Part shown: piece by piece, positions 1,375 to 36,419 of the stretch | Numbering within the stretch: position 1 is the first letter of the stretch | Layout of the letters: every line of letters begins with the position of its first letter | Assembly (NCBI GenBank): GCA_017883215.1 | Contig: JADGOA010000002.1 | Location: 1-36,938, forward strand | DNA: 36,938 nucleotides | Reading direction: 5' to 3' | Source: Thermoanaerobaculia bacterium | GTDB taxonomy: Bacteria > Acidobacteriota > Thermoanaerobaculia > Gp7-AA8 | Notes under the pieces: model-generated | The model's database searches: none | What the model saw: only the letters and a program-made list of their open reading frames with translations | Told to the model about the DNA's origin: nothing | Translations under genes and position numbers: made by a program

Positions 1375-1401
1375 AGTGATCACTGGTCACTGATCACTGG
1401 T
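1375..1401. repeat. Tandem heptamers CACTGGT/CACTGAT x3
   Basis: agtgat cactggt cactgat cactggt. It lies in the 35-nt spacer between the AtpZ-like gene and atpI and overlaps the AtpZ-like stop codon. Confidence 0.85.
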
Positions 1402-1612
1402 CTCCCCTTCCCGCGCGGAAGAGATTCACAAAAGCCGCAGCCACGCCGAGCGCGGTGAAGATGATCGTCAGCCACGGCCGCAGACCGAGCAATCCATCCA
1501 GCCAGTGGCCGAAAAGATAGCCGAGTCCGATCGCCACGGGGAACATCAAGCCGAGCGTGGCAGCCTCGTAGACAGCCTGGGCCTGCGACCGCTTTTCCTT
1601 ATCGTCCGCCAT
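1394..1612 (-). CDS. AtpZ/AtpI-family small membrane protein (putative F0F1-ATPase accessory subunit)
   Basis: 72 aa with two TM helices. The pattern LGLMFPVAIGLGYLFGHWLDGLLGLRPWLTIIFTALGVAAAFVNLF matches the AtpZ-type family (G.wLD...g..Pw...g..lG). Its ATG at 1612 lies 14 nt inside the 3' end of nuoN. Confidence 0.6.
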   Translation of the reverse strand: MADDKEKRSQAQAVYEAATLGLMFPVAIGLGYLFGHWLDGLLGLRPWLTIIFTALGVAAAFVNLFRAGRGDQ

Positions 1613-3131
1613 GCAGTTCAGCCGCGCGCGTCGCGACCCACTGCGACGACTGCTCTACCTGAGAGATCAGCGGCGCGGGAAGAATACCGAAAATCAGGGT
1701 CACCGCAAGCGCAATCCCGCCGACCAGCTGCAGCGAAGTCGAATTCGCGACCTCGGCGTCCTGCCCGTCGCGGAGATACATCGCCACGACCACGCGGAAG
1801 TAGTAGAAGATCGACACGGCCGACATCAGCACGGCGATGATGGCCAGCCACCCGTACCCGGCCTGGATCGCTGCGGCGAAGAGGTAGTACTTCCCGATGA
1901 ATCCGGCCGTCGGCGGGATGCCCCCGAGCGACAGCAGAAACATGACCATGGCGAAGGCCCAGAACGGGGCGCGCTTGTGCAGGCCATCGAAGTCGTCGAT
2001 CAACTCGCCGGCATACTCGTGGCGCCGCATCATCAGCACCGTCGCCCAGATGCCGAGGTTCGCGAAGACGTAGACGACCGTGTAGATCAGGATGCCGCGC
2101 AGACCCGTGGAGCTCATGGCGATGATGCCGAGCAGGATGTAGCCGGCATGACCGATCGACGAGTACGCCAGCATCCGCTTGATGTTGGTCTGAGTGATCG
2201 CGGCGAGATTTCCGACGATCATCGAGAGCGCCGCAACGACAGCGAGGACGTTGCTCCAGTCGAGGTGGAAACTCGGAAGGGCCACGTAGAACACGCGTGC
2301 GAAGACTGCGAAGGCCGCAGCCTTCGAGCCGGTGGAGAGGAATGCCGTGATGGGCGTGGGAGCGCCGACGTAGACGTCCGGCGTCCAGACGTGGAACGGC
2401 ACCGCGCCGACTTTGAAGCAGAGGCCCGCCCCGAGGAGCATGATGCCGAACATGAGGGCGTTGTTGGTGGTGAGCGTCGACATGACTTTGGCGATGTCGA
2501 GGAGATTCAACGAGGCGCAGACCCCGTAGATGAGGGAAAGTCCGTACAACAGAATCGCCGAGCTGACCGCGCCGAGGATGAAGTACTTCATCGCCGCCTC
2601 GGTCGACTTCTCCTCGTTCTTGTAATAACCGGCCAGGATGTAGCTCGAAAGCGACATCAGCTCCAACCCCACCCAGATGGCGATCAGGTGGACGCCGGAG
2701 GCCATGAACATCATCCCGCACAGCGCGAAGCCAAGCAGTGAGTAGTACTCCCACGTCGAGTAGCGCGACTCACGAAGAAAGTCGTCCGAGAGCAGGACCA
2801 CCATGGCCATGGCTGCCACGAACAAGAGCTTGAAGAAAATCGAGAACGCGTCCAGCGCAAACATCTGCGAGAAGCTGGCTGAGAGCGTCATCCCCTCGGC
2901 CAATGACGAGCAGACCACGACCGAAATGGCGGTGATGGCGAGAAGTGCCAGCGTCCACCACTTCGCGGAGGCGCCGGTGTTCGCTGCCGCTGCCGGTTCT
3001 TCAACCGGGTGCAGACTCATGGAGGTGGAGCGTTTCGGCCGTCCCGTGAAGAACGGCCCGAGCAGCAACAGCGACGCGCCGATGGTCAGGATGATCTCGG
3101 GCAGCAGAACGACGACGTCGTTCCAGCTCAT
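1599..3131 (-). CDS. nuoN: NADH-quinone oxidoreductase subunit N (antiporter-like)
   Basis: 510 aa polytopic Mrp/ND2-like protein, last gene of the nuo string. It overlaps nuoM by 4 nt. Confidence 0.9.
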   Translation of the reverse strand: MSWNDVVVLLPEIILTIGASLLLLGPFFTGRPKRSTSMSLHPVEEPAAAANTGASAKWWTLALLAITAISVVVCSSLAEGMTLSASFSQMFALDAFSIFFKLLFVAAMAMVVLLSDDFLRESRYSTWEYYSLLGFALCGMMFMASGVHLIAIWVGLELMSLSSYILAGYYKNEEKSTEAAMKYFILGAVSSAILLYGLSLIYGVCASLNLLDIAKVMSTLTTNNALMFGIMLLGAGLCFKVGAVPFHVWTPDVYVGAPTPITAFLSTGSKAAAFAVFARVFYVALPSFHLDWSNVLAVVAALSMIVGNLAAITQTNIKRMLAYSSIGHAGYILLGIIAMSSTGLRGILIYTVVYVFANLGIWATVLMMRRHEYAGELIDDFDGLHKRAPFWAFAMVMFLLSLGGIPPTAGFIGKYYLFAAAIQAGYGWLAIIAVLMSAVSIFYYFRVVVAMYLRDGQDAEVANSTSLQLVGGIALAVTLIFGILPAPLISQVEQSSQWVATRAAELHGGR

Positions 3132-35304: not shown

Positions 35305-36279
35305 ATGGCCGGACCGATTACGCAATTCATCGAAACGCACTACCGCCACTTCAACGCTGCGGCGCTGAAGGCGGCGGCCGAGGATTACAACAAGCACCTC
35401 GCCAAAGGCGGGAGCATGCTGGTCACGCTCGCCGGCGCGATGTCGACCGCCGAGCTCGGGATCTCTCTCGCCGAGATGATTCGGCAGGGAAAAGTCCACG
35501 CCATCAGCTGCACCGGTGCGAACCTGGAGGAAGACATCTTCAACCTGGTCGCGCACGACTGCTACGAGCGCGTCCCGCACTATCGCTATCTCAGCGCGCT
35601 CGACGAGAAAGCGCTCCTCTACCGCCACATGAACCGCGTCACCGACACCTGCATCCCCGAAGGCGAAGCGATGCGGAGGATCGAGGCGGCCGTGCTCCGG
35701 CACTGGGTCGAGAAGGACAAGAAGGGCCAGCGCCTCTTCCCGCACGAGTTCATGTACGAGATCCTGCGCGACGGATCGATCAAAGAGTTCTATCAGATCG
35801 ATCCGAAGCACTCCTGGATGATCGCCGCTGCCGAGAAGAACCTCCCCATGTTCGTTCCCGGATGGGAGGATTCCACCCTCGGCAACATGTACTCCGGCCA
35901 CTGCATCGCCGGCGACGTGAAGAACGTGCACACGGTCCGCACCGGCATCGAGTACATGATCGAGCTCGCCGAGTACTACACGAAACTCTCGATGGCCTCG
36001 TCGATCGGTTTCTTCCAGATCGGCGGCGGCATCGCCGGCGACTTCCCGATCTGCGTCGTCCCGATGCTCCATCAGGACCTTCGGCGCACGGACGTGCCGC
36101 TGTGGGGATACTTCTGCCAGATCAGCGACTCGACGACGAGCTACGGCTCGTACTCAGGCGCCGTTCCGAACGAGAAGATCACCTGGGGCAAACTGGGCGT
36201 CGACACCCCGAGCCACATCATCGAGTCCGACGCCGCGATCGTGGCGCCGCTGGTGTTCGCGTTCGTGTTGGGGTGGTGA
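35305..36279 (+). CDS. Deoxyhypusine synthase-like protein
   Basis: 324 aa. DHS family pattern: LAGAMSTAELG, ISCTGANLEEDIF, GWEDSTLGN and FQIGGGIAGDFPI. The catalytic-lysine context NEKITWGKL has its Lys codon at 36190-36192. Confidence 0.85.
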   Translation: MAGPITQFIETHYRHFNAAALKAAAEDYNKHLAKGGSMLVTLAGAMSTAELGISLAEMIRQGKVHAISCTGANLEEDIFNLVAHDCYERVPHYRYLSALDEKALLYRHMNRVTDTCIPEGEAMRRIEAAVLRHWVEKDKKGQRLFPHEFMYEILRDGSIKEFYQIDPKHSWMIAAAEKNLPMFVPGWEDSTLGNMYSGHCIAGDVKNVHTVRTGIEYMIELAEYYTKLSMASSIGFFQIGGGIAGDFPICVVPMLHQDLRRTDVPLWGYFCQISDSTTSYGSYSGAVPNEKITWGKLGVDTPSHIIESDAAIVAPLVFAFVLGW

Positions 36280-36286
36280 GGGCACC

Positions 36287-36419
36287 GAGTGCCTGAGTCC
36301 TGAGTGCCTGAGTCCTGAGTCCTGAGTCCTGAGTCCTGAGGATGTTACGTTGGGGTACTCACGCCGACGGCCGAGAACTCAACGCTCAGGATTCAGATCT
36401 CGGCGCGCTCAGGACTCAC
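36287..36419. repeat. GAGTCCT/GAGTGCCT tandem array with downstream inverted partners
   Basis: gagtgcct gagtcct gagtgcct (gagtcct)x4 gag occupies 36287-36340. Partial reverse-complement copies are ctcaggattcag (36385-36396) and ctcaggactcac (36408-36419). The element fills the spacer between two convergent genes. Confidence 0.9.

Follow-up and report, generated by a model that had tools for sequence, protein, structure and literature searches.

The spacers between genes in a 36,938-nt stretch of DNA from an uncultured bacterium of the class Thermoanaerobaculia (Acidobacteriota; contig JADGOA010000002.1; the whole stretch is called the window below) carry tandem arrays of 7- and 8-nt units, and where two arrays of one unit family face each other as a hairpin, the arm that is read first is almost always the G-rich one. 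We put the chance at about one in two (0.5) that these elements are slippage-prone, copy-spreading and largely neutral intergenic microsatellite pairs, formed by a directional step at the level of DNA, and that they are not dedicated terminators. The arrays are of a kind already recorded in other phyla and here extended to the Acidobacteriota. The habitats of the source organism are permafrost, peat and soil, the metagenomes of which hold DNA near-identical to the window, and the best relatives of its Ser/Thr kinase gene, at no more than 72% identity, are found in metagenome-assembled genomes (MAGs) of the same class.

A sequence-only reading of the window had proposed that nearly every intergenic spacer carries a hairpin or array built from tandem 7-8-nt units. 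Every element that it listed was located again at the coordinates given, in the sequence itself, with Tandem Repeats Finder (TRF) and with an inverted-repeat finder, but "nearly every" is an overstatement because, among the 21 spacers of more than 15 nt, only 11 have an array. If a strict array is taken to have at least three units, no more than two mismatches and a period of 7 or 8, the 3,486 nt of intergenic DNA in the window contain 10, compared with 0.01 on average, and 2 at most, in 200 dinucleotide-preserving shuffles, and the 33,423 nt of coding DNA contain none; at periods 5, 6, 9 and 10 the window has no intergenic arrays. TRF reports period 7 and 8, with 3-7 copies, at 12 loci. At least eight different unit families are present in these 37 kb, and CTACTCG, CACTGNN and GGTCCGC recur at distant loci, as had been noticed. 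"Hairpin or array" describes two situations: five loci fold as hairpins well beyond shuffled sequence (z -5 to -7.9), and the arrays at 1381, 9765, 15889, 32114 and 35228 are direct only, their folds in the source strain being not significant (z -0.6 to -1.2). Half of the window arrays have no partner. The loci are given below, with a strand where one was assigned.

1368-1404 (repeat 1380-1402): direct array (CACTGRT) x3.3 in the nuoN-adjacent spacer, closely preceded by two degenerate inverted AGTG units; TRF and sequence; weak hairpin, fold z = -0.6.
9739-9792 (repeat 9759-9792): a TGCGCAG unit and TCAGTGA, then (CACTGNN) x4-5, filling the nuoH-nuoD spacer inside the nuo operon and abutting the nuoD stop codon; TRF; fold z = -1.1.
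10921-10992: hairpin in the nuoD-nuoC spacer, 5' arm of (CAGTGSG) type, 3' arm (CACTGCS) x4.4; a 16-nt stem at 100% (10921-10936 / 10963-10978) and also a 23-nt inverted repeat at 87%; fold of 10909-10990 -43 kcal/mol, z = -5.6.
15889-15918, plus strand: direct array (CTACTCG) x4.3 without a partner, ending about 10 nt before the ribosome-binding site (RBS) of the second OmpA-like gene; TRF, 100% match; fold z = -0.9.
19457-19478: weak and marginal array (GCACCGN) x2.9, just after the T-run terminator of hppA; TRF score 33 and our own scan.
22897-23036: hairpin in the UPF0047-lpd spacer; 5' arm (GCGAGTA) x2.4 then (GCGGGTA) x2.3, the first unit supplying the UPF0047 stop codon; loop of about 65 nt; 3' arm (CTACTCG) x4.3 at 23007-23036, ending 11 nt before the lpd ATG; inverted repeats in four registers, with 22-nt arms at 95% (22897-22918 / 23002-23023) enclosing an 18-nt perfect core; fold of 22891-23040 -79.6 kcal/mol, z = -5.0.
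25442-25525: hairpin 9 nt after the sodC stop codon; 25-nt inverted repeat at 100% (25442-25466 / 25501-25525), 5' arm (CAGTTGCT/CAGTTACT) x4.8, 3' arm (AGCAACTG) x2, flanked by CCCGGC/GCCGGG; fold of 25434-25535 -60.7 kcal/mol, z = -7.9.
27796-27874: hairpin with arms (CACAGAGRG) x3 and (TCTCTGTGY) x3, 30 nt each and 87% complementary (27796-27825 / 27845-27874); period 8-9; fold of 27790-27880 -45.8 kcal/mol, z = -6.7.
27940-27983, plus strand: two abutting direct arrays upstream of the gene for the major facilitator superfamily (MFS) transporter, (GGTCCGC) x3.7 at 27940-27965 and then (YACTCGC) x2, whose TACTCGC and CACTCGC units belong to the CTACTCG family; TRF and sequence; fold z = -3.0, from a local CGCGG palindrome only.
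32112-32145 (repeat 32112-32142): direct array (GCGGTCC) x4.4 of the same family as that at 27940, 3 nt from the stop codon of the M28 peptidase gene; TRF; fold z = -1.2.
35214-35266: octamer array (CCNGGTGA) x4.6 in the divergent promoter spacer between the M28 peptidase gene and dhs, given by TRF as CCCGGTGA x4.6 at 35228-35264; fold z = -0.7.
36287-36418: hairpin between the convergent genes dhs and hyp131; 5' arm (GAGTCCT/GAGTGCCT) x7.4 with a GAGTCCT run at 36287-36340, 3' arm degenerate (CTCAGGATTCAG ... CTCAGGACTCA); TRF score 90; fold of 36280-36419 -83.7 kcal/mol, z = -7.4.

The CACAGAG-type arms are thus present much as they had been described, except that their period is 8-9 and not 7. 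Tandem arms allow each stem several pairing registers. No T-run lies behind any of the five hairpins, and T-run terminators exist separately at 16608 and 19408, which agrees with the earlier view that the elements are not canonical terminators. At the CTACTCG array at 15889, the predicted fold of 15880-15939 pairs UUCUCC, upstream of the array, with the GGAGG RBS of the second OmpA-like gene and leaves the array as the loop; this fold is not significant against shuffles (z = -0.9).

Are such arrays a peculiarity of the window? With 80 related loci (L001-L080, 1.26 Mb) the window makes a set of 81 genomes and 1.29 Mb, in which period-7 arrays number 59.7 per 100 kb in non-coding and 0.73 in coding DNA, and period-8 arrays 28.1 and 0.37, the gene calls for the relatives being our own and validated on the window. 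Arrays are therefore enriched about 80-fold outside genes, so the possibility that they are no more frequent in intergenic than in coding DNA does not hold. In the TRF period histogram of the 80 related loci, 7 and 8 stand out as peaks in addition to the coding periods 6, 9 and 12. In metagenomes, three consecutive CTACTCG units occur in at least 120 stretches, and among the matches listed most are soil contigs of 60-70% GC with the architecture (CGAATAG/CGAGTAG)n, short loop, (CTACTCG/CTATTCG)n. Many heptamer families are also found in contigs of very different GC (L082, for example, at 47%), and G-first heptamer hairpins of the CTACTCG and GAGTCCT families are found in phage and prophage contigs of IMG/VR (L201-L215), such as L213 and, just before an ATG, L202 and L208. 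Because it extends to soil metagenome contigs, to contigs of other GC and to viral contigs, the phenomenon is broad. Individual families are common to several genera: AACCGAC is present in seven species, the ACTCAGS family (the window's GAGTCCT) in the window, L007, L012, L037, L060 and L064, and the family of the 36287 hairpin in L037, L064 and the viral contigs L210-L215.

Families are dispersed over many loci. Word depth over arrays in metagenomes is 10-40 times that of the flanking genes, in every metagenome examined 11-22 different contigs continue from the CTACTCG array into unrelated sequence, and in some contigs two array families directly adjoin each other. For the array at 15889 the depth is 107-328 against a background of about 10, with 10-15 contigs diverging at 15918, and for the hairpin at 25442 it is 130-407 against 7-15.

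The anatomy of the arrays was followed in 639 period-7/8 arrays from 201 sequences. Of these, 241 take part in the 126 inverted pairs that join arrays of the same family within 500 nt, and direct pairs number only 11; gaps have a median of 28-30 nt, and the lengths of the two arms correlate weakly (rho 0.24-0.31). The 5' arm has more G than C in 108 of 123 pairs (binomial p = 1.5e-18) or, counted by family, in 56 against 9 of 65 families, and the arrangement of arms is near-constant within a family (19:1, 9:2, 8:0 and 4:0). In the 67 families found in pairs, a minimum for the number of such families, the 5'-arm units are composed of 174 G, 75 C, 116 A and 118 T, with GG outnumbering CC 55:6 and GGG outnumbering CCC 21:0. 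This polarity is not mere orientation, because a palindrome reads alike on both strands: on either strand it is the G-rich arm that leads, 5' to 3', towards the centre. G-first pairs prevail between co-directional (45:4), convergent (23:3) and divergent genes (20:2), and polarity is thus independent of the context of transcription. It is also specific to the arrays, because 537 perfect inverted repeats of other kinds in the same DNA split 223:220. In the light of this context independence and of its absence from ordinary hairpins, we infer that the inverted partner is made by a directional, DNA-level step, and that polarity does not arise from selection on RNA. Candidate causes that fail are a general property of hairpins, which the 223:220 split rules out, and avoidance of Rho or another RNA-level cause, against which stand the equally polar divergent spacers and the unpaired arrays of co-directional spacers, G-rich on the sense strand in 13 cases and C-rich in 15. 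Chi sites were also considered, the G-rich 7-8-mers being then oriented for a RecBCD that enters at a break in the centre; the idea was rejected because there is one Chi sequence per species, as against dozens of unit families.

Arrays vary between strains by whole units. In contigs of the Logan collection that align to the window at about 98-99% identity, there are 21 additional nucleotides, TGCGCAGTGCGCAGAGCGCAG, at 9738 in two metagenome runs (X8 and X6), amounting to three more 5'-arm units that complete a full hairpin; 14 additional nucleotides at 22896 (X8); 7 at 10920 in both X8 and X6, with two different unit variants; a 7-nt gap in the array at 15889 in the X9 and X13 contigs that span it; and 8 nt, one unit, fewer at 25486 (X8). 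The slippage that the sequence-only reading had listed among possible origins is accordingly a real component of the process (+7, +14, +21, -8 nt), and the two arms of a hairpin change independently. Repeats within genes are also polymorphic between these strains: 15 nt, (GGACG)x3, are added at 15091 near the 5' end of the first OmpA-like gene, 24 nt at 19830 in a gene encoding tetratricopeptide repeats (TPR) and 6 nt at 21169 in the kinase gene.

Between species, whole loci come and go. In pairs of 84-92% identity, entire hairpins are present in one member and absent from the other with clean borders (L059/L064, in two cases, L050/L060, L027/L032 and L029/L033), and there was no target-site duplication in four clean presence/absence comparisons. 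The empty site in the L050/L060 pair is the mini-hairpin CCGGTT-ACAC-AACCGG, with one unit in it, and a single unit-like seed is present at two of the four empty sites. L046 and L051, at 92% identity, have different families in the same spacer. The junction of UPF0047 and lpd carries arrays in 15 of 40 relatives, made from at least 10 different units, and is free of a hairpin in the other 25; in nine relatives the two genes abut or overlap, leaving no spacer. In the orthologous hairpins at 9502-9581 of L059 and 8057-8136 of L064 the arms are unchanged and the loop is inverted, matching at 19 of 23 positions as the reverse complement (score 15 versus 8 for the direct comparison, with 0 of 5,000 shuffles reaching 15). 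The AAACCAG hairpins at 12951-13026 of L046 and 18848-18903 of L051 likewise have inverted loops, at 15 of 18 positions versus 9 of 18 direct. To judge from these inverted loops, the arms of a pair interact at the DNA level, which implies flip-flop recombination or template switching between inverted arrays.

Pairs can also be nested. L008, L013 and L027 have common outer GGGGWGT arms with species-specific inner arrays, L015 has three layers, L024 has two families in the interleaved order A-B-A'-B', and in L027 and L033 an unrelated palindromic repeat sits inside the loop. Copies of one family within one genome have unrelated loops (L013 at 2251 and 8339, L030 at 498 and 1601). The longest perfect stem averages 15.3 nt, against 15.2 nt when the order of units is shuffled, and none of 74 pairs is significant; the order of variants in one arm is thus not mirrored in the other beyond chance, as it would be had one arm been copied from the other or were pairing selected for, and pairing is therefore not maintained. 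Identity to the periodic extension drops to the random level (0.26-0.28) directly past both the outer and the loop-side edges of the arrays, so there is no sign of growth from either end.

Taken as microsatellite pairs, the elements could have the following life history. Typically, two arrays of one family lie head to head, as G-rich strand, loop and C-rich strand, from which single-stranded DNA or RNA can form a long hairpin with several pairing registers. Whole units are gained or lost in each arm separately by replication slippage, as the strains display, and exchange between the arms, or template switching, can turn the loop round, the outcome encountered twice. Whole arm-loop-arm modules or single arrays would be copied to new intergenic sites, without target-site duplication, and lost again; the copying route may be template switching at microhomology with existing arrays, as the seeds at two of the four empty sites suggest. 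New modules and small palindromic elements would gather in existing loops and give rise to the nested layers described above. Selection would clear arrays from genes and tolerate them in any spacer, most often directly behind a stop codon. The arrays could thus be viewed as mainly neutral or selfish "genomic weeds", whose effects on RNA structure are incidental.

Several points weigh against this life history. Slippage alone does not account for the restriction of units to 7 or 8 nt, for the G-richness of the 5' arm or for the persistence of a limited set of families across genera while loci turn over; lasting families with transient loci are typical of repeats maintained by a dedicated enzyme, such as the repetitive extragenic palindromic (REP) sequences with their REP-associated tyrosine transposase (RAYT). 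No copying event was caught directly in the genomes compared, and presence/absence differences do not tell gain from loss. Each relative is represented by about 20 kb, and per-genome copy numbers rest on metagenome depth, which possibly includes other members of the community. Hairpins between co-directional genes begin close behind the upstream stop codon, at a median distance of 4 nt, which could reflect a function at the 3' end of mRNA and not mere tolerance.

The analogy with REP sequences leads to an alternative that we regard as unlikely, namely that the hairpins are non-autonomous mobile elements of the REPIN kind (REP doublets forming hairpins), copied as single-stranded DNA by an unseen RAYT or IS200-IS605-type enzyme with an HUH (histidine-hydrophobic-histidine) motif, which would be encoded elsewhere in the genome, the tandem arms being secondary products of slippage. 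REP sequences, bacterial interspersed mosaic elements (BIMEs) and REPINs with RAYT transposases (Bertels & Rainey 2011, PMC3116915) are likewise extragenic, palindromic and of high copy number, occur behind stop codons and inside operons, and as inverted doublets form long hairpins, in families that outlast their loci and without target-site duplication. In our set, families with tens of copies and a near-constant arm arrangement last across genera while loci turn over, the four presence/absence cases lack duplications, hairpins stand directly behind stop codons and inside operons, and the AAACCAG hairpins of L046 and L051 have a common loop at different loci. The tetranucleotide GTAG is conserved 5' of many REPs, and it occurs inside the 5'-arm units of two window families (GCGAGTAG and GCGGGTAG), being absent from most others. 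However, REPs are fixed imperfect palindromes of 20-40 nt, whereas the elements here are tandem 7-8-nt units in variable number, and REPIN spacers and arms are conserved between copies, whereas here the loops of same-family copies in one genome are wholly different and arm lengths vary with the weak correlation given above. Unlike REPs, the hairpins are not depleted in divergent promoter spacers. With dozens of families per clade, one enzyme for each is implausible, and a single enzyme for all would have to recognise something besides sequence. A crude scan for the HUH motif (a regular expression applied to six-frame open reading frames (ORFs) in 2.07 Mb of fragments), which has low power, returned one hit, in a wrong-frame ORF, and no RAYT-like ORF.

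Could the hairpins instead work as RNA, stabilising the 3' ends of mRNA, terminating or attenuating transcription independently of a T-run ("I-shaped" terminators), or coupling translation after stop codons? The G-first order would then hide the C-rich arm from Rho. The high stability of the five window hairpins is in keeping with such a role, as is their position: 23 of 26 hairpins in co-directional spacers are nearer the stop codon than the next start, besides the 4-nt median, some lie inside the nuo operon, and the first unit can itself supply the stop codon. In Xanthomonas, most repeats of a comparable kind are transcribed (PMC4692102). The distribution of hairpins over spacers argues otherwise. 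All the settings named in the sequence-only reading (convergent, co-directional, intra-operon and divergent) are occupied; 66 of 67 non-edge pairs are intergenic, and 27 hairpins are co-directional, 19 convergent and 20 divergent, with 50%, 25% and 25% of spacer bases in these classes, so that hairpins show no preference for a type of spacer. Divergent spacers, equally rich in hairpins per base, have the same G-first bias, the unpaired arrays have no sense-strand bias, and the unmirrored order of variants shows that pairing is not maintained. A general role in RNA 3'-end protection, as had been suggested, is also difficult to reconcile with the UPF0047-lpd junction, where most relatives do without a hairpin and the units differ among the rest. 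Half of the window arrays are partnerless, and Rehm et al. found no regulatory role for such repeats (PMC4692102). We therefore consider a functional RNA hairpin improbable as the general explanation.

A further explanation takes the pairs to be scars of healed ends: a break, maybe at the tip of a hairpin, would leave two 3' ends, to each of which a templated or reiterative polymerase would add one and the same G-rich 7-8-nt repeat, with existing arrays or their transcripts as templates, before the ends were rejoined. The resulting head-to-head arrays would resemble a telomere-telomere fusion, and the process would be a bacterial counterpart of telomere addition. It would account for the G-rich strand running towards the centre on both strands in any gene context, for the excess of GG over CC, for arm lengths and orders of unit variants that are largely independent between arms, for loops unrelated between copies, for the lack of target-site duplication and for the fixed unit length of 7-8 nt. 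The younger, species-specific arrays inside the older arms common to L008, L013 and L027 would fit as well, as would the A-B-A'-B' order in L024, which is impossible by simple loop insertion. On the other hand, dozens of families would need dozens of templates, unless existing arrays serve, loops of 10-60 nt exceed a simple junction, many arrays are unpaired, and there is no direct evidence for breaks. To our knowledge, no bacterial enzyme adds G-strand repeats to ends. This leaves healed ends as a very unlikely origin.

Arrays of sites for a sequence-specific DNA- or RNA-binding protein, which had also been proposed, have nothing in their favour in these data beyond regular spacing and several copies per locus. 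Cold-shock proteins do bind heptamer repeats, with one protein per heptamer (MacGregor 2015, PMC4679880). The at least 67 paired unit families have no common core, the unit differs at orthologous sites, copy number varies freely and there is no association with a class of gene, all of which makes binding sites a scarcely credible explanation. An artefact of assembly or polishing is a remote possibility: short-read contigs do break at arrays, but the same arrays, with strain-specific unit counts, are present in independent assemblies of at least eight public metagenome runs from several studies, in the 80 related MAGs, including some assembled as single chromosomes or multi-megabase contigs (L008, L015 and L023), in metagenome contigs of the Joint Genome Institute (JGI) and in viral contigs.

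The nearest known counterparts of the microsatellite pairs are the intergenic heptamers GGGAATC of Xanthomonas and GGGGAYT of Nostoc/Anabaena described by Rehm et al. (2015, PMC4692102). There, arrays of about four units occupy hundreds of loci per genome, 89-93% of them intergenic and close behind the upstream ORF, and Xanthomonas has 70-75 pairs per genome that are "always" convergent; length and sequence vary between close species, no function was found, and there are no such repeats on Xanthomonas or Anabaena plasmids (PMC4692102). The arrays of the present study have in common with these heptamers the tandem 7-nt unit, the non-coding bias, the dispersed loci, the G-first pairs (equivalent to the "always convergent" order), and the variability of length and presence between relatives. 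Xanthomonas and Nostoc, however, have one dominant, G-quadruplex-capable family that is under-represented between divergent genes, unlike the many families per genome here, most of which are not capable of forming a G-quadruplex, which include 8-nt units and nested or interleaved layers, and which are not depleted in divergent spacers of this different phylum, the Acidobacteriota.

More generally, heptanucleotide long simple sequence repeats (SSRs) are over-represented in prokaryotes according to Mrazek et al. (2007), as cited in PMC4679880 and PMC4692102, which also relate the idea that about 7 nt is the footprint of the polymerase in slippage, and heptamer short tandemly repeated repetitive (STRR) sequences of cyanobacteria go back to Mazel (1990), as cited in the same two papers. 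As summarised in those papers, the long SSRs resemble our arrays in that heptanucleotides are the most abundant class, intergenic and without a link to phase variation, and in that several families per genome are possible; the summaries describe no hairpin pairing rule or polarity across families, and the Acidobacteriota are not among the taxa that they name. The TAACTGA direct repeats of marine Beggiatoaceae, cyanobacteria and some Bacteroidetes (MacGregor 2015, PMC4679880) are heptamers in 2-6 copies, nearly all intergenic, with the same unit in distant taxa, and they often lie directly upstream of start codons, as does our CTACTCG array at 15889. They differ in consisting of a single unit with one inverted repeat among 170 sets, and in being strongly oriented towards the downstream start codon, a bias without counterpart here, where the unpaired arrays split 13:15.

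Other classes were considered and set aside. A miniature inverted-repeat transposable element (MITE) would not lack target-site duplications or, apart from the L046/L051 case, have different loops within one family and genome; the units of 7-8 nt are contiguous, unlike the 23-50-nt repeats and unique spacers of arrays of clustered regularly interspaced short palindromic repeats (CRISPR); intrinsic terminators are contradicted by the missing T-runs and by the 30% of hairpins in divergent spacers; and SSRs for phase variation belong with surface or restriction genes, whereas the window arrays flank housekeeping genes (nuo, lpd, sodC and dhs) and are mostly 3' of genes. The earlier opinion that the organisation is unlike classical REP/BIME, MITE or CRISPR systems stands in so far as each of these fails in at least one defining feature, but the intergenic heptanucleotide long SSRs provide a precedent. 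The mycobacterial interspersed repetitive unit (MIRU) and variable-number tandem repeat (VNTR) loci of mycobacteria have units of 40-100 bp, are partly translated, and are intergenic in operons, overlapping stop and start codons. They share with our arrays this position and the polymorphism of unit number between strains, but have no inverted-pair architecture. The window has no match to Rfam families at the gathering threshold, a look-up of the exact UPF0047 protein sequence returned no record, and literature searches on the unit sequences, and on Acidobacteria with heptamer tandem repeats, found no paper.

The record of intergenic heptanucleotide repeats in bacteria begins in 1990, and that of their over-representation in 2007, on the dates of the papers cited above. 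Their extension to Thermoanaerobaculia, abundant in soil and permafrost, adds an unusually rich case, with many families, units of both 7 and 8 nt, and nesting. Any mechanism must account for units of these two lengths only, for arms that vary independently by whole units, for rapid gain and loss of modules without target-site duplication, for families that outlive their loci, and for a C-poor 5' arm in 56 of 65 families that is independent of transcription and absent from ordinary hairpins. The polarity rule generalises the "always convergent" remark made on Xanthomonas, and it makes of an old descriptive puzzle a question that can be tested in a tractable organism. Healing of ends, if true, would jointly explain the fixed unit length, the polarity across families, the independence of arms and the nested or interleaved layers. 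In practice, short-read assemblies of such genomes break at the arrays, which at the same time offer ready-made VNTR markers with which to track strains in metagenomes.

By Pfam, the genes of the window include atpB, a methyltransferase gene, two OmpA-like genes, hppA for an H+-pyrophosphatase, the Ser/Thr kinase gene, UPF0047, lpd, sodC, genes for a PAS-Fis regulator and an MFS transporter, crp, scdA, the M28 peptidase gene and dhs for deoxyhypusine synthase. A nuo operon for complex I, with 11 subunits and without nuoEFG, runs on the minus strand from nuoN to nuoA. Its NuoB (439 aa) and NuoC (331 aa), encoded at 10991-13374, have extra C-terminal PF04060 "putative Fe-S cluster" domains, and 324 nt of nuoB (12386-12709) are missing in frame in the strains of runs X8 and X6. 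The ORF of the kinase (20870-22456) overlaps, in another frame, the one that contains the TPR (19509-22394); because relatives match only a 528-aa kinase at this locus, there are probably two genes with a short overlap near 20870-20900 and no frameshift. A TATAAT box about 25-35 nt upstream of the kinase ATG (22496-22501 in the window, approximately 9960-9975 in the coordinates of loci L001-L080) is conserved in all relatives inspected. An array abuts this box on its upstream side in L008, L013, L026 and L027, and an array lies between the box and the ATG in L060 and L064.

The window also contains dispersed repeats that are not tandem. One occupies 24509-24619 in the lpd-sodC spacer (...CGCCCCCTCATCCGCCTTCGGCACCTTCTCCCCC...), with a depth of 50-150 against a background of 7-15, and at 24533 other strains have a deletion of 189 or 247 nt or an insertion of 1,226 nt. 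The same motif forms an inverted pair inside hairpin loops of L027 (5468-5849 and 15661-16040) and is also present in the viral contig L205; it looks like a MITE-like element. Two palindromic elements with a CGGACG/CGGACA core, at 29316-29446 and 31968-32084, have a depth of 67-670 against 5-60; one has perfect inverted arms of 24 nt, separated by 83 nt, and the other is a 37-nt inverted repeat at 81%. Their core resembles the heptamer family GCGGACC at 27940 and 32112, and they may be a REP-like family related to that unit.

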